A stretch of 32,000 nucleotides of DNA from Candidatus Electronema halotolerans (GTDB taxonomy: Bacteria > Desulfobacterota > Desulfobulbia > Desulfobulbales > Desulfobulbaceae). The stretch is taken from contig OW818675.1 of assembly GCA_942493095.1 (NCBI GenBank), positions 450,001-482,000 on the forward strand, in the 5' to 3' direction. Position numbers and translations under genes: made by a program. Positions within the stretch are counted from its first letter, which is position 1; every line of letters begins with the position of its first letter. Positions 5,737 through 30,106 of the stretch are shown piece by piece. Below the pieces are notes generated by a model that was not told where the DNA came from, did no database searches, and saw only the letters and a program-made list of their open reading frames with translations.

Positions 5737-7098
5737 TCACATATAGGAATAGCCGACTGGCGAGTCGTCCTGCTTCTTGGCGATCAGGGCATTGGTGACA
5801 CTGTCAAAGAGCTGCTGCGCCCCTTGGTAGCCGAGATGGAGGATGCGCTGGCCGCCGACCCGGTCATGAATCGGGAAGCCGACCCGGATCAGCGGGATGT
5901 CCAGCTTGCGGGCCAGCGGATAGCCCTTGGAATGGCCGATGATGATATCCGGCTTCAGGACTTCGGCCTGCTCGGCGATGTCAAAGAAGTCCGCGCCCTC
6001 ATGCACGTCCGGCTGTTCAGCAAGGATGCCGTCTGTCACCTCGGCAATGGCTCCGGCCAGCTTGCCCGACGTGCCCCCGGAAGCGCAGAGCACTGGCACG
6101 ATGCCGATCTCAGCCAAGAACGCAGTCAGCCCGACCACCAAATCCTCCTCGCCATAGATGATGGTCCGCTTGCCAAACACGTACTTGTGGCCATCCACAT
6201 AAGCATCCACCAGCCTGCCCCGTTCCTTCTGGTATTTTTCCGGCATTACCTGGCCGCTCAGGTCTGAGAGCAGGGCAAAGAAACGGTCAGTCTCCTCAAT
6301 GCCAATGGGCATGCCGAGCTGATGCCGCCGCACCTTGAACTTGTTGTCCAAGGTCAGCGCCCCGCTCAGGCCGCTGCTGATGGTGCGGCTGAACTCAATG
6401 GTCGCCTGACTGCGGCCCATTGCGCTGATCGCGGCCAAGGGCGTGCCGCCAGGGGCAATCTTCTCGTAGTCGAGCTGGGCCGGGCCGTCCATAGTCTCGG
6501 ACAAATCCGGCAGCATGGTGTAGGTCAGGCCAAATTCGGCCATGATCTCGTGCAGAAGGCGGCAGTCTGCTGAGGAGACAAAGCCGGGCAGCAGGTTGAC
6601 GGTCTCGGTGCGCGGGCCGCCGCCAGCCCGCTGCGCAATCACGGCCTGCACTGCTCCGTGAAAGCCCTCGATATGAGTGCCGGAGTAGCTCGGCGAGGCG
6701 ACGTGGACAAATTCCGGCAGCCCTTCTGATCCCTCGGTGTCCTTGGCATACTCATGGAGATAGCGGGCCACGTCATCGCCGATTGTCTCGGTCAGGCAGG
6801 TGGTGGCAATGCCGATCAGAGCGGGCCGGTACTTGGCCGCCACATTGGTCAGGCCCAGCTTGAGATTGGGGCCGCCGCCGTAGATGGCGTTCTTCTCGGA
6901 CAGTGACGACGAGGCAATGTCTATTGGCTCATTGTAATGGCTGATGATGTAGCGGCGCATGTAGGTGGCGCAGCCCTGCGAGCCGTGCAGGTACGGCACT
7001 GCGCCCTCAATGCCCTTGAAGGCCAGACATGCGCCCAGCGGGCGGCAGAGCTTGCAGGCATTGGTGGTTGAGATGTAGTTGGGATGCGGCTTGCTCAT
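5737..7098 (-). CDS. nitrogenase component 1-type oxidoreductase, NifK/NifN-like (orphan)
   Basis: Start set at the ATG at 7098, preceded by AAGGAG (complement of 7104-7109). Motifs: CRPLGA (Cys18), LHGSQGC (Cys43), ATTCLTETIGDD (Cys101). The Cys spacings of 25 and 58 aa equal those I recall for the NifK P-cluster ligands Cys70/95/153. The 453-aa length is NifN-like. Confidence 0.8.
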   Translation of the reverse strand: MSKPHPNYISTTNACKLCRPLGACLAFKGIEGAVPYLHGSQGCATYMRRYIISHYNEPIDIASSSLSEKNAIYGGGPNLKLGLTNVAAKYRPALIGIATTCLTETIGDDVARYLHEYAKDTEGSEGLPEFVHVASPSYSGTHIEGFHGAVQAVIAQRAGGGPRTETVNLLPGFVSSADCRLLHEIMAEFGLTYTMLPDLSETMDGPAQLDYEKIAPGGTPLAAISAMGRSQATIEFSRTISSGLSGALTLDNKFKVRRHQLGMPIGIEETDRFFALLSDLSGQVMPEKYQKERGRLVDAYVDGHKYVFGKRTIIYGEEDLVVGLTAFLAEIGIVPVLCASGGTSGKLAGAIAEVTDGILAEQPDVHEGADFFDIAEQAEVLKPDIIIGHSKGYPLARKLDIPLIRVGFPIHDRVGGQRILHLGYQGAQQLFDSVTNALIAKKQDDSPVGYSYM

Positions 7099-7134
7099 GA
7101 TCACTCCTTGGGGATAAGTTGACAAGGCTGCCGC

Positions 7135-11626: not shown

Positions 11627-11845
11627 ATGCGCCGATCATTACCATTGAAGCCCTTTGCAAAGGAATCGGAGTTGCAGGGCTTTGACAAAGGCAGCAAGGC
11701 GGTGCTGATGTCGTTGGATGAATTCAATTCTTGGCAGGAAATGCTGTATTTGCTTTCCAATCCTGCTAATGCGGAGCATCTGCGCCGGTCGCTTCAGGAA
11801 GCCAGAGAAGGCAAGGGAATTGAGCGGGAGCTGATTGATCCATGA
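11627..11845 (+). pseudogene. Phd/YefM-family antitoxin remnant (N-terminus lost or frameshifted)
   Basis: The C-terminal part KAVLMSLDEFNSWQEMLYLLSNPANAEHLRRSLQEAREGKGIERELI closely parallels E. coli YefM ([28 protein letters not shown]...GKG). The expected APIIT segment is in a different frame (11629-11643), separated by about 45 nt containing a ctttgcaaagg / ctttgacaaagg duplication. No intact N-terminus. Confidence 0.55.
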
Positions 11846-11976
11846 AGCTGCTGTTTATTGAATCTGGCCGCACGAGCAGGATAGTTGCCCAGCTACCTTG
11901 TATTTGGAAGGTGAAGAAATTGATAAAAAATACAGTGTGCTGGTTCTTAGACAATTATACGGTAACAAAGAAATAA
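11842..11976 (+). pseudogene. YoeB/Txe-like toxin remnant (44-codon stub)
   Basis: ATGA overlap with the antitoxin stop (typical toxin-antitoxin coupling). MKLLFIES... and VKKLIKNT resemble the YoeB N-terminus (MKLIWSEES..., VKKINELIKDT). The frame stops at 11974-11976, before any catalytic residues. Weak similarity. Confidence 0.3.
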
Positions 11977-11981
11977 CTACT

Positions 11982-12464
11982 ATGGACGAGAAAATAATTG
12001 CCGCGATTATTGGTGGAGTTGCTGGATTTATAACTTCGTATTTGACTACTAAGTTAAAAAATAAGCAAGAATTGGAGATTTGGAATAGCGATTTTGCTGT
12101 AAATTATTCCAAATTACTTTTTGAGAATCCAAAAGCTGCTGTTCAGCTCGCAAGACAATTCTCAGTTGGACTGATTATCGTTCGCGATGGACAAGGTCAT
12201 ACGGCAAGTAAACACTTTATACCGTATCAATGTAAAGTTTCTATCGGAAGAAAAGAAGACAATGATATTGTCCTAACAGATAGACTCGTCTCACGTGATC
12301 ATGGTGTTTTCTTTTACCGTGGAAATAAAGTAATGTTTCAGGAATTTTATTCTGTAAACAAGACTCTTCTAAACGGGAAACCAATAAACAAGATTTGCTG
12401 TTTAAAATCCGGCGACAAGATAAAAATTGGCAATATTCTACTAGAATTTGAAGAATTAAAGTAA
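11982..12464 (+). CDS. membrane-anchored FHA domain protein
   Basis: AT-rich ORF. N-terminal TM helix [17 protein letters not shown]. The C-terminal FHA pattern is [51 protein letters not shown]...[16 protein letters not shown]. No clear SD; the track start at 11898 (TTG) is an alternative. Confidence 0.6.
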
Positions 12465-20025: not shown

Positions 20026-21543
20026 TCACTCTTTCATCACCATCACCAAGCTGCCGCAGATATTGCCGCAGCCTTCCTCCTGCGCTGCCGCAGCCTGCTC
20101 CTTGCGCAGCTCATTGACAGCCGCTGTCATCAGGGCCAAATAAACCCAGAGCGTGGTTGTGTTGTACTCAAAATCAACCAAGCCCTGAATGCAGATGACC
20201 AAGACCCCGCCGCTCATTGCGCTGACCAAGATTTCCAGCGGCGTTTTCTGGCGCAGCAAAGCTGGAACAATGCCTCTGAGCAGATAGAGGGTCAGCCAGA
20301 GCATGAAGAGCAGGCCGATCAGCCCGAATTCAAACCAGACGGAAAAATAAATGCTGTGCGCATGAGGCGCCCGCATCTCCCGTTTCAGATTGCCAATCCC
20401 CAGCCCTTGGAGCGGCACCTCGCTGTAGGCGCGGAAACTTTTGAGCCAGAGCCGTCTCCGGCTGTGCTGCTTGTTGTCAATCTCCGGGTCAATGGCATCG
20501 CCGGATTCAACCACCTTGATGCCCAGCGAGAAAAGCCGGGGCGAAAAATTTTTCTGAATGATCAGGGAAACCGCAATGTTCTGGGCCGTATAGATAGTGA
20601 TGATCAGCAGTGAAAAAACAACCAGCCAGCGGAACAGCCAACGCCGCAGCCTGTTGAGCAGGAAAAACATGGTCACGCCGACAATCAGCAAGGCCCCAAA
20701 ACCGGCCCGGCTTTCCGTGCGCAGGGTGACAAACATGAGCAGGAAGAGCAGGCCGAAGAGCAGGACATTCTGCCGCTTGGATTTGCTGGTCAGGAGCAGG
20801 CCGAGCAGCACTGGACAGGTCATGTTCATCAGCACCGAGGTTTCGTGGTTGTCCTGAAGCCCGGAGGCAACTTGGGGCCAGCCAGAGGGCTGAAGCCAGC
20901 TGGCAAAAAAATGAAAGCCGGTGACAAGGCCGGGCAGAATTTCTTTGCTGATCAATTGGTAATCAAAGAAAAACGAGGCCAAAGCAAAGGCCCCTTGAAA
21001 GGCGATGGACAGCGACCAGAGCCAGAGTGCCAGTCGCAGCTTGGCCGCATCGCTGATCAGGGCGGTGAGGATGAAGTAAAGCTGAACATTGGTGAGCAGA
21101 ATCAGAAACTGAAACAGACTGTGCTGCCAGCTCTCTGACCAGCACACGGTCAGCCCGGCATAGATGGTCAGGACCAGTATGGGAAAACCGAGCGGATTGC
21201 GGCCAAACTCTTTCATAAAGCGGCCCCACCGGTTCAATGTCAGGCCGAGCCAAGTCAGGAGGATGAGCGGCATGGAAACAGAAAAGGCATCAATGTAATT
21301 CATGCCAGTGATGAAATTCCACTGCTCTTTAAAGGCCGCATAGCAGACAAAAGAGGTTACTGGCGCGGTGAAGAGCAGGAGATTCATGCCTGCTGCCGGT
21401 TTGAGAAGGACAAGGCCGGTCAGCAGGAGCAGAGCATTGACAAGGAGAAAATAGAACCAGTGCGCTTGAATGGCAAGCAGGGAGAGCAGGAGGATGAGAG
21501 GCAGCAGCACCAGCAACAGTGCTGCTCTGAGCGCAGGAGGCAT
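20026..21543 (-). CDS. O-antigen ligase/polymerase family (Wzy_C) membrane protein
   Basis: About 12 predicted TM helices. A large loop is followed by APHAHSIYFSVWFEFGLIGLL, matching the H-x-x-x-L...E-x-G-x-x-G Wzy_C/WaaL signature. Confidence 0.7.
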   Translation of the reverse strand: MPPALRAALLLVLLPLILLLSLLAIQAHWFYFLLVNALLLLTGLVLLKPAAGMNLLLFTAPVTSFVCYAAFKEQWNFITGMNYIDAFSVSMPLILLTWLGLTLNRWGRFMKEFGRNPLGFPILVLTIYAGLTVCWSESWQHSLFQFLILLTNVQLYFILTALISDAAKLRLALWLWSLSIAFQGAFALASFFFDYQLISKEILPGLVTGFHFFASWLQPSGWPQVASGLQDNHETSVLMNMTCPVLLGLLLTSKSKRQNVLLFGLLFLLMFVTLRTESRAGFGALLIVGVTMFFLLNRLRRWLFRWLVVFSLLIITIYTAQNIAVSLIIQKNFSPRLFSLGIKVVESGDAIDPEIDNKQHSRRRLWLKSFRAYSEVPLQGLGIGNLKREMRAPHAHSIYFSVWFEFGLIGLLFMLWLTLYLLRGIVPALLRQKTPLEILVSAMSGGVLVICIQGLVDFEYNTTTLWVYLALMTAAVNELRKEQAAAAQEEGCGNICGSLVMVMKE

Positions 21544-21621
21544 GGTTCAGGGAAGCAGGCCGGGGCAGGTCTTTGCAAGCTGAGGACTGCCAAGCATCAG
21601 TTCTTCAGAAAATATCAAGAG

Positions 21622-22701
21622 TCACCTCAACTTCAAGGTGGCCAAGGCCATCAGGCCAAGAATAATTGAAATAATCCAGAAACGCACCACCACTTTCGGC
21701 TCTGTCCAGCCCTTCTGTTCAAAATGATGATGAAACGGCGACATGAGGAAAACCCGCTTGCCGCCGCTGGCCTTGAAATAGAGCACCTGAATGATCACGG
21801 ACAGGGCCTCCATGACGAAAATTCCGCCGACTATGGCAAGCAGGATTTCCTGTTTGATGATGATTGCCACCGTGCCGAGCGCGCCGCCCAAGGCTAAGGA
21901 GCCGACATCGCCCATGAACACTTGGGCCGGATACGTGTTGTACCAGAGAAAGCCGAGACAGGCCCCAGCCACGGCGGCACAGAAGACCGCCACTTCGTCC
22001 GCGCCGACAACATGGGGAATTTGCAGATAATGGGCCACTGCCGCATTGCCGACCGCATAAGCGAAAATCAGATACACTGAGGAGGCGATCATCATCGGCC
22101 CGGCAGCAAGGCCGTCCAAGCCGTCAGTGAGGTTGACCGCATTCGACGCGCCGACAATCACGGCCACAGCAAAGGGCAAATACCACCAGCCTATGTCAGG
22201 CTGCACCCCTTTGAGGAAGGGCAGACTCAGGCCGCCGTCATAAGCTGGATGCAGATGCAGATAGAGGCCGACCAGCAAACCGCCGCTGATTTGCAGCAGC
22301 AGCTTGCATCGCGCTGACAGCCCCTTGCTGCTGCTCCTTGTCACCTTGCGCCAGTCATCGACCATGCCGATCAGGCCGTAAAACAGGGTCAGGAGCAGGC
22401 AGACCCAGACCAGCTCATTGCGTAAATTGGCCCAGAGCAGGGTGGCTACAGCAATGGCGACCAGCATCAGCAGGCCGCCCATTGTCGGCACCCCGCGCTT
22501 GCTGAAATGGCTTTCCGGGCCGTCATCGCGCACCACTTGGCCGATCTGGCGGCTTTTCAGCCAGCGGATGAAGACTGGTTCAAAAAGGAAAAGAATGAGA
22601 AAGGCGGTCAGCGCGCTGCCGATGGAGCGGAAGGTCACGTAGCGGAACACATTGAAAGCACTGTGGTATTCATGCAGCGGGTAGATGAGATTGTAAAACA
22701 T
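21622..22701 (-). CDS. mraY: phospho-N-acetylmuramoyl-pentapeptide transferase
   Basis: Canonical MraY N-terminus (FNVFRYVTFR), PTMGG, NAVNLTDGLDGLA and HHHFE. The ATG is 3 nt after the murEF stop. Confidence 0.95.
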   Translation of the reverse strand: MFYNLIYPLHEYHSAFNVFRYVTFRSIGSALTAFLILFLFEPVFIRWLKSRQIGQVVRDDGPESHFSKRGVPTMGGLLMLVAIAVATLLWANLRNELVWVCLLLTLFYGLIGMVDDWRKVTRSSSKGLSARCKLLLQISGGLLVGLYLHLHPAYDGGLSLPFLKGVQPDIGWWYLPFAVAVIVGASNAVNLTDGLDGLAAGPMMIASSVYLIFAYAVGNAAVAHYLQIPHVVGADEVAVFCAAVAGACLGFLWYNTYPAQVFMGDVGSLALGGALGTVAIIIKQEILLAIVGGIFVMEALSVIIQVLYFKASGGKRVFLMSPFHHHFEQKGWTEPKVVVRFWIISIILGLMALATLKLR

Positions 22702-22704
22702 GCC

Positions 22705-25700
22705 TCAGCAGCCCCCTTTGTTCAGCTTGGCCTGCACAATTTCCAGCACCTTTTCCATCCGCATCCCCCGTGAGCCTTTGAGCAGGAGCCAGTCGCCTGC
22801 CGTGATATGGTTCATGTCGATTTCATTGAGCAGCCAAGCCGCCATTGCCGCAGTGTCAGGAAACACCTGCGTCATCTTGTCCGGCATTCCGCCTTGTCTT
22901 GCCCCTTCAGCAACTTGTTCCGCAAACGTGCCGGTTGCTGCTGCGTGCGCATAACCGAGCTGCGCGGCCTCCCGGCCAAGCTGCTCATGCGCTGCGGCTG
23001 AGGACTCACCCAATTCCAGCATGTCGCCGAGCAGGGCGATATGTTTGCAATTCTTGCCAAAGCCGCGCAAGGTCTTCAGAGCCGCCAACATGGAGCCGGG
23101 ATTGGCATTGTAGCAGTCGTTCAAGACATTGATGCCGTTGGGCAGGGTGACAAGCTGCATCCGCTTGTCCGCACTGCTCTGATAGGCCCGCAGCGTGTCA
23201 GCAATGGTTTCCGGTGCAATGCCAGCCGCATGAGCAATTGCCGCAGCCGCGCAGCAGTTGCTGACGCTGTGCAGGCCGGGCAAAGCAATCTCAACTTCTT
23301 GCTCCCAATCACATATACACAAGTTGAAGCGCATTCCTTTCTCACCGAGATCAGCAATGTTGACCGCGCTGACTTCCGGCGTGCGGCTGAGTCCTGCCGA
23401 CGTGACAGCAAAGCCGATCACCCGCGCTGAATTGGTCGGCAGCTTGCGCACCTGCGGATCATCCAAATTGACCACGCTGACCGTGTCCGCCCGCAGCCCG
23501 GCGAACAGCTCGCCCTTGGCCTTGGCAACGCCCTCAATGCTGCCCAAGCCCTCCAGATGCGCGGCCTGAACGTTGGTGATGCAGGCAATGTCAGGATCAG
23601 CCGCTGCACCAAGGCGGGCAATCTCGCCAGGATGATTCATGCCCATTTCCAGCACTGCCGCCTTGTGCCCGGCAGCCATTGGCAGCAAAGAGAGCGGCAT
23701 TCCAACCAGATTGTTGAAATTGCCCTGCGTCTTCAGAACCGGGTTGATGCCGGTGTTCGCCTCAGCAAAATGGCGGCTGAAAAGTGCCGCAACCAGTTCC
23801 TTGACCGTGGTCTTGCCGCTGCTGCCAGTGACGGCAGCCACGGTCAGCCTCTTGCCCAGCAGCCTGCGGCGATAGGCGGCCAAATCAAGCAGAGCTTGCA
23901 GCGTGTCAGTCACCCGGATAAGCACGGTTCCGGCAGACACCTGCATCTCACGCTGGACAATGACTGCTGCTGCTCCGGCCTCAATTGCCGTCTGCACATA
24001 GTCATGGCCGTCAAATTTCTCTCCGGCCAAAGCAACGAAAATGTCACCACGCTGCAACGTGCGCGTATCTATGGAAACGTTGCCAAACGTATGGGTAGGG
24101 GCAGGCCCCCGTGTCTGCCCTCCTGTTGCCCGAACCAAATGCCCAAAATTCCAGCGCAGCAAACCATTGACCGCCTCAATCCGATCATCAAAAAAATGCC
24201 GCTCCGCACCGATAATCTGATAATCCTCATGCCCTTTGCCTGCAATGAGAACGATGTCCTCCGGCCCGGCCAAGGCGCAGGCCGTATGAATGGCGGTTCT
24301 CCGGTCAGATATGCAGACAAAGCCTTTGGCAGATGCCAGCTCATCCGGCGTAAGCTCGGCCAGCCCAGCGGCCCGACATCCTGCCGCAACCTCGCTGATA
24401 ATGGTCTCCGGGTCTTCTGAGCGGGGATTGTCCGAAGTGACAAGGCTGAGGTCAGCAAATTTCGCCGCAACTGCCGCCATCTGAGGCCGCTTGCCCTTGT
24501 CGCGGTCGCCGCCGCAGCCAAAGACGCAGAACAGCCGCCCTTTAGTCAGCGGACGCAGGGTTTGCAGCACATTCTCAAGAGCATCCGGGCTGTGGGCGTA
24601 ATCGACCAGCACACAAGGCTGTTCCTCTTCGGCCAAGCCGGGTAGCTGCACCCGTTCCAAGCGGCCTGGCACCTGCCTGTCCTGCGCCAAACCAGAGACA
24701 ATCTGATCCGGCGGCAAGCTCAAGGCCAATCCTGCTCCGGCGGCGGCAAGGATGTTGAGGACGTTGTGCCGCCCGGTCAGGCAGGAACGGAATGGCAATG
24801 ATTTTCCGTTGACGCTGAGATTGCAGGAGAAGCCTCGGATGTCCTGCTGCAAATCTGTCGCAGAGACACGGTTTGCCTTTGCCGTGTCAAGACCGCAGGT
24901 GAATTGGGCCAGATCAGGCCGTTCCGCCGCCAGCTCGTGAAAAAGTTGACGGCCCCAGTCCTGCTCCGTGACGATCACCGCCTTGCCGTTCTCCTTGAGA
25001 TAGCGAGTGAAAAGCAGCTTTTTGGCCGCGAAATACGCCGCCATCGTGCCGTGAAAATCGAGATGGTCGCGGGTCAAATTGGTGAACAGGCCGACATCAA
25101 AGCGCAGCCCGGCCAATCGCCTTTGCTCCAAAGCATGAGAGGAAGTCTCCATTACCACGTGGGTCACGCCTGCATCAGCCATTACCCGCAGCATTTTTTG
25201 GAGCTGCACCGGCCCCGGCGTGGTCAGCGGCGCCTTCTCGGCAATCACCCTGCCAGCGCGATCTGTCCAGCGGTAGTTCACTGTGCCGATCACTCCGACC
25301 TGACAGCCGCTGGCAGCCAGCATCTGCTCGATCAGCCACGAAATCGTGGTCTTGCCATTAGTGCCGGTCAGGCCGATCAAGTTCATGTTTTGGGTTGGGA
25401 AGTCATGCAGAGCCGCAGCCAGCCAGCCCAAGGCGGCATGACTGTCCTTGACCTGGACCACTGCTGTGCCTTCCAGCGGGCCGGGATCATTTTCAACCAC
25501 GACGCAGGAGCAGTCTTGCTCCACAACTTGGCGGACAAAATCATGGCCGTCCGCCTTGCTGCCCTTGACCGCAACAAAGATGCTCTCCGGCCCAGCCTCA
25601 CGGGAGTCGCAGGTGATATGGCAGATTGGGCCTTCTGTTGCTCCATGCAGCACCTGCGCTGCCAGCTCTTCCGGCAGAGCGCGGAGCAGTTGATGCAATT

Positions 25701-25707
25701 CAATCAT
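22705..25707 (-). CDS. murE-murF: fused MurE (UDP-MurNAc-L-Ala-D-Glu:meso-DAP ligase) - MurF (D-Ala-D-Ala adding enzyme)
   Basis: Single 1000-aa ORF. The N-terminal half has GLTGTNGKTT, DYAHSPDAL, GCGGDRDKGKRP, DNPRSEDP (DAP-specific DNPR) and AGKGHE. From about aa 515 (near nt 24160) the MurF part begins: SIDTRTLQRGDIFVAL, VTGSSGKTTVKE, NDCYNANPGSM and the C-terminal LLKGSRGMRME. Confidence 0.9.
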   Translation of the reverse strand: MIELHQLLRALPEELAAQVLHGATEGPICHITCDSREAGPESIFVAVKGSKADGHDFVRQVVEQDCSCVVVENDPGPLEGTAVVQVKDSHAALGWLAAALHDFPTQNMNLIGLTGTNGKTTISWLIEQMLAASGCQVGVIGTVNYRWTDRAGRVIAEKAPLTTPGPVQLQKMLRVMADAGVTHVVMETSSHALEQRRLAGLRFDVGLFTNLTRDHLDFHGTMAAYFAAKKLLFTRYLKENGKAVIVTEQDWGRQLFHELAAERPDLAQFTCGLDTAKANRVSATDLQQDIRGFSCNLSVNGKSLPFRSCLTGRHNVLNILAAAGAGLALSLPPDQIVSGLAQDRQVPGRLERVQLPGLAEEEQPCVLVDYAHSPDALENVLQTLRPLTKGRLFCVFGCGGDRDKGKRPQMAAVAAKFADLSLVTSDNPRSEDPETIISEVAAGCRAAGLAELTPDELASAKGFVCISDRRTAIHTACALAGPEDIVLIAGKGHEDYQIIGAERHFFDDRIEAVNGLLRWNFGHLVRATGGQTRGPAPTHTFGNVSIDTRTLQRGDIFVALAGEKFDGHDYVQTAIEAGAAAVIVQREMQVSAGTVLIRVTDTLQALLDLAAYRRRLLGKRLTVAAVTGSSGKTTVKELVAALFSRHFAEANTGINPVLKTQGNFNNLVGMPLSLLPMAAGHKAAVLEMGMNHPGEIARLGAAADPDIACITNVQAAHLEGLGSIEGVAKAKGELFAGLRADTVSVVNLDDPQVRKLPTNSARVIGFAVTSAGLSRTPEVSAVNIADLGEKGMRFNLCICDWEQEVEIALPGLHSVSNCCAAAAIAHAAGIAPETIADTLRAYQSSADKRMQLVTLPNGINVLNDCYNANPGSMLAALKTLRGFGKNCKHIALLGDMLELGESSAAAHEQLGREAAQLGYAHAAATGTFAEQVAEGARQGGMPDKMTQVFPDTAAMAAWLLNEIDMNHITAGDWLLLKGSRGMRMEKVLEIVQAKLNKGGC

Positions 25708-25813: not shown

Positions 25814-26344
25814 TTACTTGAGTTGCAGAGGAATGCCACAGCAGACTAAGAAAACCTGATCAGCGCGGGCGGCGATGCTCTGGTTGCAGCGGCCTGCCAG
25901 GTCGCGGAAACGGCGGGCTGCCGGGTTGTCCGGGACAATGCCCAGCCCCACCTCGTTGGCAACCATGATGATTTGGCCCTGATGGCGGCGGCTGGCTGTG
26001 CCGAGCTGGTCCGCCAAAAAGGTCATCCGGTCTTCGGTGATTTCATCGCCGCCCTGCTCGGCCTCGTGCATCAGGTTGCTGATCCACAAGGTCAGACAGT
26101 CGATGAGCACGGTTTCCCCGTCAGGCCGACAGGACAGCACCTCGGCCAGATGAAGCGGCTCCTCAATGGTTTGCCAGCCCCGGCCTTCCCGGTCGCGGCG
26201 GTGCCTGCGGACGCGGTCGTCCATTTCCGCATCCAAGTTGGGACAGGTGGCAAGAAAAAGCCGGGGCGCAGCAATGGCTTCAGCAAGCTGCTGGGCAAAG
26301 GCGGATTTGCCGGAGCGGCTGCCGCCGGTGACAAGAGTGAGCAT
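25814..26344 (-). CDS. cobU: adenosylcobinamide kinase / adenosylcobinamide-phosphate guanylyltransferase
   Basis: MLTLVTGGSRSGKSAFAQ P-loop, RVRRHRRDR...GWQTIEEP and IMVANEVGLGIVP. Start set at the ATG at 26344; an alternative ATG at 26371 would overlap the upstream gene by 11 nt. Confidence 0.85.
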   Translation of the reverse strand: MLTLVTGGSRSGKSAFAQQLAEAIAAPRLFLATCPNLDAEMDDRVRRHRRDREGRGWQTIEEPLHLAEVLSCRPDGETVLIDCLTLWISNLMHEAEQGGDEITEDRMTFLADQLGTASRRHQGQIIMVANEVGLGIVPDNPAARRFRDLAGRCNQSIAARADQVFLVCCGIPLQLK

Positions 26345-26360
26345 GTTGCATTGTTGTAAT

Positions 26361-27686
26361 TCACTGAACATATCGAGATAGATTCAATGCAATTCCTTTT
26401 TCATGAGCCTTTTTCAAAGCCTCTAAGCATTCATCTGTTGGAGCAACACATTCCCACGCGACCTCATCTTCATTGAGCAGCGATTTCCAGTTGTCATCGT
26501 TGTCACTGTCATCAAATGGATTGACATCTCCTTCTTTCAATCCAAATGTTCTATCAGCTATTTCCTTCTCAACGTATGCGTTCATCATTAAATAGCAAAA
26601 ACAACACTTGGGACATTTTCCGCACCAAGGTTTCACAAAGTTGCAAGAGTGCGTATAGGTAAGAAGGTTAGCATCGTGAGATATAATATCCTTATATATC
26701 TCAGTGTCATTCTTGTCTTGCAACGAACTGTTGAATCCTGAGAAAACAAAAGATGGAAACAGCCTGCTGAAGAGTTTTGAAATATATTTCCTGTATTCAG
26801 TGCTTTTACAATACTGGTGATTTATTGGTTCATGCAGCTCTATTCCGTCCTGCTCCGCATGTCTCCACCATTGCATTGTCCTGTCCGAAGTGCTTTCAAT
26901 ATTAAATAACACTTCGCTATAGCCATGATGGATAATCAAAGGAAAAAATCCTGCGTAATTAGCTGTATGCCCTACAAAAAAATCTATTTGCTCGCAGACT
27001 GCTTCGGGATTGATTCGCCGTAGTTCTGCCAATGATAAATGCGTGAAATCATCCTCAATAAAAACTTCAACTATGTCATTATGTGCTGCTATTTTGCTGG
27101 TCAGGCGGTCTAAAAGCTTCTTCTGAAGCTGAATGTCACCGCCTAATGGAAGATAGGCTTGGTATATATCGAAACACTCTTTATTTTTTGTTAATTCCAG
27201 CATGGAAAATAATGAATCTTTTCCCCCTCCGTTGGTAAGTAATTTTTTATCATACACCTCATCTGAGCTGGAAATTTTTTCTATAGAAAAATCATAAGCC
27301 TTATCAATGCAGTTGATTTTTGGGTAGTCTGCCGACGGGTATTGCATATTGGAAAAATAACGCCATTCCGCATAGGAATTTCTGAAAATTATATGCCATA
27401 CTTCTTTGACAAATTCCGGTACAGCATATTGCTCAGGCAGAGTTATCTTTTCTGCGCCGAGAGTGAAAAATCTCATGCTGTCAAACAAAATTATTGTTCC
27501 TGTCAGTATGTCAAATTGTTCAGCAGAACATTTCTGCTGAACTTCACTCCATTTCTGTATAGAAGAGTAGGAAATCTTAGACTTAAAAGTCAGATGCTTA
27601 ATTTTGTAATAAATAGAGATGGCGGCTGGAAAGTCTTCTTTTTCAACCTTCACTACGGTGATATCATACTTGCTTGCTGAAATCAT
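26361..27686 (-). CDS. hypothetical protein with a PP-loop-like ATP-pyrophosphatase motif and a QueC-style Cys cluster (AT-rich orphan)
   Basis: 441-aa ORF with AAGGAG 6 nt upstream (complement of 27693-27698). LLTNGGGKDS at aa 149-158 (nt 27213-27242) resembles SGGxDS. C348-x6-C355-x2-C358-x2-C361 plus C362/C364 lie at nt 26595-26645. GC is about 37-40% on sampled lines against 55-75% in the flanks. Confidence 0.7.
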   Translation of the reverse strand: MISASKYDITVVKVEKEDFPAAISIYYKIKHLTFKSKISYSSIQKWSEVQQKCSAEQFDILTGTIILFDSMRFFTLGAEKITLPEQYAVPEFVKEVWHIIFRNSYAEWRYFSNMQYPSADYPKINCIDKAYDFSIEKISSSDEVYDKKLLTNGGGKDSLFSMLELTKNKECFDIYQAYLPLGGDIQLQKKLLDRLTSKIAAHNDIVEVFIEDDFTHLSLAELRRINPEAVCEQIDFFVGHTANYAGFFPLIIHHGYSEVLFNIESTSDRTMQWWRHAEQDGIELHEPINHQYCKSTEYRKYISKLFSRLFPSFVFSGFNSSLQDKNDTEIYKDIISHDANLLTYTHSCNFVKPWCGKCPKCCFCYLMMNAYVEKEIADRTFGLKEGDVNPFDDSDNDDNWKSLLNEDEVAWECVAPTDECLEALKKAHEKGIALNLSRYVQ

Positions 27687-27752
27687 GACTGTCTCCTTTT
27701 TTTAGTTTCAGAGAAAAGCAACTAGTTGAATTGTTATCGCTTAATCGCTGTG

Positions 27753-27797
27753 ACAAAATGACCTGGCCAAGTTGGGAGAAAATCTTGGTCAGGCCAG
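27753..27797 (-). terminator. probable intrinsic terminator of clpA
   Basis: Arms CCTGGCCAAG (27762-27771) and CTTGGTCAGG (27784-27793) form a 10-bp stem with one G-U pair and a 12-nt loop. On the minus strand it is followed by TCATTTTGT. It starts 9 nt after the clpA stop. Confidence 0.5.
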
Positions 27798-27805
27798 GAT
27801 AAAGT

Positions 27806-30106
<2,301 letters not shown>

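Follow-up and report, generated by a model that had tools for sequence, protein, structure and literature searches.

Between clpA and cobU on contig OW818675.1 of Candidatus Electronema halotolerans lies a lone AT-rich gene, and the question that it raises is what its product does and how it came to be there. The stretch analyzed here covers positions 450,001 to 482,000 of that contig (32,000 nucleotides, hereafter the window, in whose numbering all coordinates are given), and the gene, which we call X, is an open reading frame (ORF) at 26361..27686 on the minus strand that encodes 441 amino acids (aa) from an ATG start. An initial annotation had read it as a divergent QueC-family enzyme acquired horizontally without its usual partners, and had offered MurL as a second, speculative possibility. 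Evaluating its family, predicted fold, relatives, composition and strain variation, we see X as a MurL-family protein with a QueC-like PP-loop fold, and our favored reading, held with moderate confidence, is that X is a horizontally acquired and selection-maintained member of an uncharacterized MurL-family clade, working as an AMP-forming carboxylate-activating enzyme and probably as a peptide epimerase.

Judged by its domains, X belongs to the MurL protein family. Precomputed Pfam assignments place PF26298 (MurL_epimerase_C) on it strongly (E <= 1e-5) and PF26299 (MurL_N) faintly, and all 17 of its relatives in a large protein database carry both PF26299 and PF26298. A Pfam scan by local models returned DUF6395 alone (E 0.035), while the only NCBIfam match was MurL_Xanthmoales (NF041275; E 1.1e-8), a hit that lies mainly at aa 351–426 and scores 34 bits against an equivalog cut-off of 700 bits over the full length. 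X is bridged to this MurL model by P0017, the most distant of the 17 relatives, which matches the model nearly end to end (2e-67) and sits in an operon of Mur ligase, NUDIX, MurL and alanine racemase (Alr) genes; the near-complete match and the Mur operon together make P0017 a true peptidoglycan-type reference. The Cys region of P0017 (C319 to C335) also falls inside a weak Pfam QueC match (6e-4, profile positions 147–200 of 210). For X itself neither Pfam nor NCBIfam gave a match to the QueC profiles PF06508 and TIGR00364 at E <= 10, and we reject QueC-family membership on that ground. A sequence search of the PDB with X alone gave no match.

What survives of the QueC assignment is the fold. 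An AlphaFold2 (AF2) model of X, built on an 18-sequence alignment, reached a predicted local distance difference test (pLDDT) score of 90.5 and a predicted template modeling (pTM) score of 0.90. Searching the PDB with this model in Foldseek returned QatC of the QatB-QatC complex (9y02_B; E 4e-5; template modeling (TM) score 0.44–0.46, 0.44 on the query length; 427 aligned columns), QueC 2pg3 (E 4e-4; TM 0.59 on the target length), Cap9 (E 8.5e-4; TM 0.70 on the target length) and QueC 3bl5 (E 1e-3; TM 0.63 on the target length), with further matches to YcfA, TrmU/MnmA, TtuA, LarE and argininosuccinate synthase. Among viral structures (BFVD), the top matches were nearly all phage QueC, the best of them at E 3.4e-6 and TM 0.64 on the target length. 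By this model X is confirmed to have the QueC-type PP-loop alpha-hydrolase fold, with a putative Cys4 site toward the C-terminus. QueC itself activates a carboxylate by adenylation, and it binds zinc through a C-x8-C-x2-C-x2-C motif. Like QueC (PF06508), X sets a PP-loop Rossmann-like core before a C-terminal C-xn-C-x2-C-x2-C site, with Foldseek TM scores of 0.59–0.65 on the QueC length, and by analogy it may share carboxylate adenylation chemistry. X differs from QueC in having double its length, an additional N-terminal domain of 145 aa and a helical C-terminal region, in matching no QueC profile, and in lacking queuosine or deazapurine genes (queD, queE, queF, tgt) near it in the window.

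These structural matches also bear on whether X might be an orphan QatC/Cap9-like anti-phage component that arrived as a defense islet. QatC, its top PDB match over the full length, and Cap9 (members of the QatABCD and type IV CBASS, or cyclic-oligonucleotide-based antiphage signaling, systems) resemble X in having a QueC-like core with extra domains, X forms a single-gene AT-rich islet, and the window's other AT-rich islet holds a toxin-antitoxin remnant. Yet the TM score to QatC/Cap9 is only 0.44 and the identity only 10–12%, PADLOC returned 0 families at E <= 10, and no QatA/B/D, TatD, CD-NTase or TGT-like partners were present in the window or in the homologue loci examined, none of which had a defense context. 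Relatives in viral contigs were likewise lacking, the sequence family is MurL and not QueC, QatC or Cap9, and the homologue neighborhoods are biosynthetic. We regard a defense role as largely refuted and its truth as exceedingly improbable, so that the defense link raised in the initial annotation is given up, while its remark that the usual QueC and defense partners are absent near X holds.

The residues on which a shared chemistry would depend are intact. Both motifs first noticed in X, LLTNGGGKDS at aa 149–158 and a C-x6-C-x2-C-x2-C cluster, are present as described and are not a product of chance, because both are invariant in 105 diverse family members. The PP-loop proper, G153-G154-G155-K156-D157-S158 (27213..27230, minus strand), aligns with the SGGKDS of TtuA, to which a family-profile search of PDB sequences aligned GGGKDT at a non-significant E of 0.09. 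The Cys cluster, H346-S-C348-x6-C355-x2-C358-x2-C361-C-F-C364 (26595..26651, minus strand; aa 346–365 read HSCNFVKPWCGKCPKCCFCY and contain C348-x6-C355-x2-C358-x2-C361), has C348, C355, C358 and C361 conserved at 100% and is presumed to be a structural zinc site. Also invariant across the family is E412-C413 (26448..26453, minus strand; C413 at 100%), a candidate catalytic acid/base. Conservation of at least 90–100% in the 105 members extends over G153-G154-G155-K156-D157, E264, S266, H290, Q291, K294 and S320, and over S347-C348-N349, W354-C355, C358, K360-C361, E412-C413 and E419; X retains every family-invariant residue and carries 32 clade-specific positions besides. The stretch NPFDDSDNDDNW, which had been taken for an acidic tail, is an acidic internal loop at aa 389–400 of 441.

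Divergence in X is greatest at the other end of the protein. Median identity to other clades is 15% in the N-terminal domain (aa 1–145; 27252..27686, minus strand), 23% in the core and 32% in the Cys/C-terminal part, and the N-terminal domain is only 30% identical (median) within the clade of X itself. A divergent N-terminal domain on a better-kept core and Cys part points to the same chemistry acting on a different substrate, and we presume that this domain serves substrate recognition.

How far, then, is X from MurL itself? Searched by profile, 1.84 billion representatives yielded 2242 family members at E <= 1e-3, and in a neighbor-joining (NJ) tree of the 105 near-full-length members X pairs with a 96% identical variant (P0001), then with P0002 and P0003 (~49–51% identity), and then joins a small, rare clade of 21 members. 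All 21 members of this X-like clade are at least 37% identical to X, while all remaining family members are at most 29% identical (median 22%). Both the tree and the identities place X in a clade separate from the MurD2-linked members, to which it is ~20–24% identical, and on this comparison X is not an orthologue of characterized MurL. MurL is known to use ATP and Mg, to release AMP and to work unidirectionally from L to D, and reviews from 2018 and 2021 describe this ATP-dependent peptide epimerase as unprecedented and say that it "lacks known conserved domains" (PMC5808125, PMC8788868). X resembles the characterized enzyme in its Pfam two-domain architecture, its GGGKD loop, four-Cys cluster and E/H/K/S/C invariants, its length (~440–460 aa) and presumably, by analogy, its ATP-to-AMP carboxylate activation. 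It differs in an identity of ~22% and a barely recognizable N-terminal domain, in a 9-aa insertion (aa 275–283) and a missing ~40-aa C-terminal extension that mark its subclade, and in having no adjacent or fused MurD2; by contrast, P0017 has an adjacent Mur ligase, and P0093, P0094 and P0145 are fusions. The partners in its clade differ too, being flavin N-hydroxylase/ATP-grasp/nonribosomal peptide synthetase (NRPS) proteins or cell-wall peptidases.

These comparisons decide how much weight to give the idea that X is a true functional MurL that supplies the MurE encoded downstream, with its MurD2-type ligase encoded elsewhere in the genome. The Pfam and NCBIfam MurL matches and the retained family invariants speak for it, as does an attractive gene order, X lying 16 nt upstream of cobU on the strand of cobU-murEF-mraY, and fusions of Mur ligases with MurL-like proteins are known, including the MurE-like P0124. 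Set against this are the 34 bits over aa 351–426 only, the separate clade at ~20–24% identity, the N-terminal domain at 15% and a neighborhood that lacks the expected ligase: no MurD-type ligase occurs within the 32-kb window, where the only Mur ligase is a MurE-MurF fusion, and tblastn with a working positive control found neither a MurD2 nor a flavin-containing monooxygenase (FMO) partner there. Clade partners are FMO, ATP-grasp and NRPS proteins and never MurD2, such a gene was absent from all 80 murEF loci of related phyla, and a compositionally foreign gene is unlikely for an essential cell-wall step. We therefore consider it rather improbable that X is MurL in function, and of the MurL suggestion in the initial annotation keep the family while letting go of the enzyme. 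Fusions to Mur ligases occur among distant members (P0093, P0094, P0124, P0145). P0124 (932 aa) joins a MurE-like N-terminal half (PF01225 catalytic domain), 33% identical over 481 aa to the MurE domain of the window, to a MurL-like C-terminal part, which makes it a fusion of a Mur ligase outside the MurD2 type with a MurL-family protein.

Gene neighborhoods within the X-like clade are mixed. P0018–P0021 are fused to a Pyr_redox_3/Lys-Orn-oxygenase/FMO-type flavoenzyme, and P0004 (L001, L002) is accompanied by LuxI/R, an FMO-ATP-grasp fusion, a carrier protein (PCP), weak class-II aminoacyl-tRNA-synthetase-like and condensation-like proteins, and a luciferase-like oxygenase. P0014 (Paraburkholderia) lies with an AMP-binding enzyme, an acyl-CoA dehydrogenase, a radical S-adenosylmethionine (SAM) protein, a pyridoxal-phosphate (PLP) enzyme and a major facilitator superfamily (MFS) exporter, and P0011 (L090) is found between a class-IV aminotransferase (Aminotran_4) and a 3056-aa NRPS-polyketide synthase (PKS) protein, with a further NRPS and with B12-radical-SAM genes. 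Other members have cell-wall peptidases for neighbors: P0005 (L173) adjoins a 976-aa Peptidase_S13 (PBP4-type) protein, and P0013 (L174) lies between a helix-turn-helix (HTH) protein and an NlpC/P60 peptidase. P0006 (L175) has this HTH partner in common with P0013 (57% identity); the partner is encoded upstream (L174:1017-1964, L175:3391-4371), has 315–326 aa with an N-terminal HTH_3 domain, and is absent from the window. The neighborhoods of P0015 and P0003 were uninformative, and no MurD-type ligase was seen in any of these clade neighborhoods.

Beyond the clade, a metagenome scan for X-like contexts reached distant clades only (22–31% identity), and 0 of 80 such metagenomic loci (L093–L172) had a Mur ligase within 3 kb, with a positive control that worked. 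Neighbors at these 80 loci included EgtD-type histidine methyltransferases (Methyltransf_33) in 12, OvoA-type sulfoxide synthases (DinB_2, FGE-sulfatase and methyltransferase) in 12, DUF427 in 12, an OpuAC-fused betaine-type ATP-binding cassette (ABC) permease in 8 and radical SAM proteins in 7 (examples of such genes are L165:7076-8200, L100:7812-9971, L131:2376-2891 and L101:13701-15278), suggesting that one MurL-family clade is tied to thiohistidine (ergothioneine- or ovothiol-like) metabolism. The Pfam "MurL" family is functionally heterogeneous, and biochemical MurL makes up only part of it; as the family is wider than the MurD2-coupled enzyme, the label "MurL" for X is an over-annotation. 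Literature searches found no MurL structure and no account of biosynthetic gene clusters that contain MurL-like enzymes.

This breadth also lends interest to a different outcome after adenylation, in which X would be a ligase or amidotransferase like QueC, Cap9 and QatC, its acyl-adenylate being captured by ammonia or an amine and its substrate being a small metabolite or a cell-wall peptide. The nearest solved folds, as well as phage QueC, are of this kind, some family clades occur in contexts that do not look like those of epimerases (EgtD/OvoA-type neighbors), and the partners of X-like members include proteins that work on activated carboxylates (ATP-grasp, PCP and condensation-like proteins). 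The sole characterized sequence relatives are epimerases, however, X keeps without exception the residues that are invariant in MurD2-linked members, and neither QueC nor defense profiles match it, so that we take this alternative seriously but consider it unlikely.

For the favored reading, an AMP-forming MurL-family enzyme that is probably a peptide epimerase, we infer adenylation chemistry with epimerization as its outcome by analogy with MurL and QueC. In the proposed sequence of events the GGGKDS loop would bind ATP-Mg, X would adenylate the carboxylate of its substrate with release of pyrophosphate, and the four-Cys cluster would hold a structural zinc. The acyl-adenylate would acidify the alpha-proton, conserved residues (candidates are E412/C413, H290, K294 and E264) would invert the alpha-carbon, which by homology to MurL would be that of a C-terminal residue, and hydrolysis would free AMP and the D-configured product. 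The predicted QueC-like fold fits the adenylation proposal, and the substrate is most likely a peptide or amino-acyl carboxylate, possibly cell-wall-related.

The origin of X can be addressed through its composition. The AT-rich single-gene islet between clpA and cobU stands as first described: its 1392 nt (26361–27752) have a guanine-plus-cytosine (GC) content of 0.380, which gives z = −5.5 relative to the other 1392-nt stretches of the window (mean GC 0.576, sd 0.036, minimum 0.455). The X gene has GC 0.381 against 0.57–0.58 in its surroundings, and its GC at third codon positions (GC3) is 0.38 against 0.66–0.75 in ten neighboring genes (holA, clpS, clpA, cobU, murEF, mraY and the Wzy-like, HAD, P-type ATPase and DegT-type genes). 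In 60-nt windows GC shifts within ~60 nt of the X stop codon and, on the upstream side, at ~27750–27810. The 5' leader of X (27687..27752, minus strand) is AT-rich and compositionally part of the islet, and it contains the strong Shine-Dalgarno (SD) sequence that had been noted, AAGGAG at 27693–27698, spaced 6 nt from the ATG. The upstream border is marked by a terminator-like hairpin 3' of clpA (27759..27796, minus strand); it folds as proposed (−20.2 kcal/mol for a 76-nt stretch, z = −2.7), while it was not among the terminators called by a consensus scan. The islet borders carry no meaningful direct or inverted repeats, tRNA, Rfam elements or mobility genes.

Homologues elsewhere match their hosts in composition, with gene and flank GC of 0.56 and 0.60 in L001, 0.705 and 0.718 in L007, and 0.547 and 0.547 in L090. 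The closest relative of X with recovered flanking DNA, P0003 (L089; 50% identical to X), has gene GC 0.348 and flank GC 0.304 on a contig of ~30% GC. That X departs from its surroundings while homologues match theirs supports its acquisition from a low-GC donor, as the initial annotation had proposed. The best genome representatives in a MurEF scan were Thermodesulfobacteriota or "delta" metagenome-assembled genomes (MAGs), only 40–47% identical in MurEF, and around their murEF there is no X-like gene, no cobU and no counterpart of this Wzy gene; nor was a cobU or Wzy-gene homologue near murEF at any of 80 loci from other species.

Once in place, X has been maintained. Two more sequencing runs contain the exact protein, on contigs that match the window at 100% and 99.95% identity, and the 96% variant P0001 (L092, from a third run) occupies the same clpA/cobU site, with the same clpA hairpin and cobU start. 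Between X and this variant the synonymous rate (dS) is 0.087 and the nonsynonymous rate (dN) 0.019, and the resulting dN/dS of 0.21 at a common site means that X was in place before these strains diverged and has been under purifying selection. The initial annotation had held that same-locus orthologues matching their genomes would make X an old resident; the variant is an orthologue at that locus, though one so close (96% identical, and equally AT-rich) that it bears on the question only trivially. The strain data also bear on whether X is a leftover of foreign DNA that no longer functions and is decaying, as its want of partners, the undetected promoter and the extreme composition might suggest. 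An intact ORF with a strong SD, every family-invariant residue kept, the identical protein in two further samples and the dN/dS between same-locus variants all go against decay, and we hold it to be very unlikely.

Several points weigh against our favored reading of X as an acquired MurL-family enzyme that is probably an epimerase. The X-like clade lacks a characterized member, and epimerization is argued from homologues that are only ~22% identical; given the heterogeneity of the family and its EgtD/OvoA-type contexts, adenylation could lead to a different outcome, such as the amidation that QueC or Cap9 carries out. The clade neighborhoods being mixed, X moreover has none of the recurring partners. 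The case for acquisition is one of composition only, a close relative with an empty clpA-cobU site was not found, and a consensus scan gave no sigma-70 promoter for X.

Downstream of X, on the same strand, cobU (adenosylcobinamide kinase/guanylyltransferase; 25814..26344, minus strand) has its most probable start codon in the ATG of position 26344 (MLTLVTGG) and not at 26371, the earlier assignment that made it overlap X, because the CobU profile aligns from residue 9 and a 10-nt indel in L092 abolishes the upstream ATG frame; X and cobU are therefore separated by 16 nt without overlap. X is probably co-transcribed with cobU, and co-transcription would extend through cobU-murEF-mraY. The X-cobU junction is the most variable spot relative to L092, with a spacer of 16 nt in the window (26345–26360) and 6 nt in the variant (L092:1472-1477), a 10-nt indel between flanking genes that are ~96% identical. 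Farther downstream are the 1000-aa murE-murF fusion (22705..25707, minus strand) and mraY (21622..22701, minus strand), followed not by murD but by a Wzy_C/O-antigen-ligase-like gene (20026–21543). This block (20026–25707) lies outside any dcw cluster, with cobU, X and clpA upstream; the Wzy_C/O-antigen-ligase-like membrane protein occupies the usual place of murD, and a PAN_4 protein and a HAD nucleotidase come after it.

Elsewhere in the window, a second AT-rich islet (~11750–12450, GC 0.32–0.39) lies between a fn3-domain lipoprotein gene and aspS (region 11627–12464), so the X islet is not the only AT-rich accessory DNA in this chromosome. This second islet contains an antitoxin fragment of the Phd/YefM kind, 72 aa long (11627–11845), that matches profile positions 35–73 only, a short ORF overlapping the end of that fragment that could be a truncated toxin, and a 188-aa FHA-domain protein (11898–12464). 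A lone nitrogenase-component-1-type oxidoreductase (5737–7125, minus strand; PF00148, 462 aa) is encoded near an FCSD/SQR-like flavoprotein and a DUF1641 protein, without adjoining nif-like genes.

For the family as a whole, these results show that the predicted fold of the MurL family is the PP-loop fold of QueC and that the GGGKD loop and the Cys4 cluster are invariant in the family, which puts the proposed adenylation mechanism on a structural footing. They also show the breadth of Pfam "MurL", which takes in a flavin N-hydroxylase/ATP-grasp/NRPS clade, an EgtD/OvoA-adjacent clade and cell-wall-peptidase-linked members. Cell-wall-linked contexts in the X-like clade are three (murEF-mraY for X, a Peptidase_S13 PBP4-type DD-peptidase and an NlpC/P60 endopeptidase), and we raise as a speculative idea, in our view improbable, that the clade is a second ATP-driven epimerase or modifier of peptidoglycan stem peptides or UDP-MurNAc-peptide precursors that is independent of MurD2. 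If so, the foreign copy directly upstream of cobU-murEF-mraY would represent a horizontally transferable change of cell-wall peptide stereochemistry or composition. Were the X-like clade to act on cell-wall peptides, it would offer a new transferable route to the D-residues of peptidoglycan and a possible narrow-spectrum drug target; were it to act in natural-product pathways, it would be a stand-alone epimerase type beyond the E-domains of NRPS enzymes.

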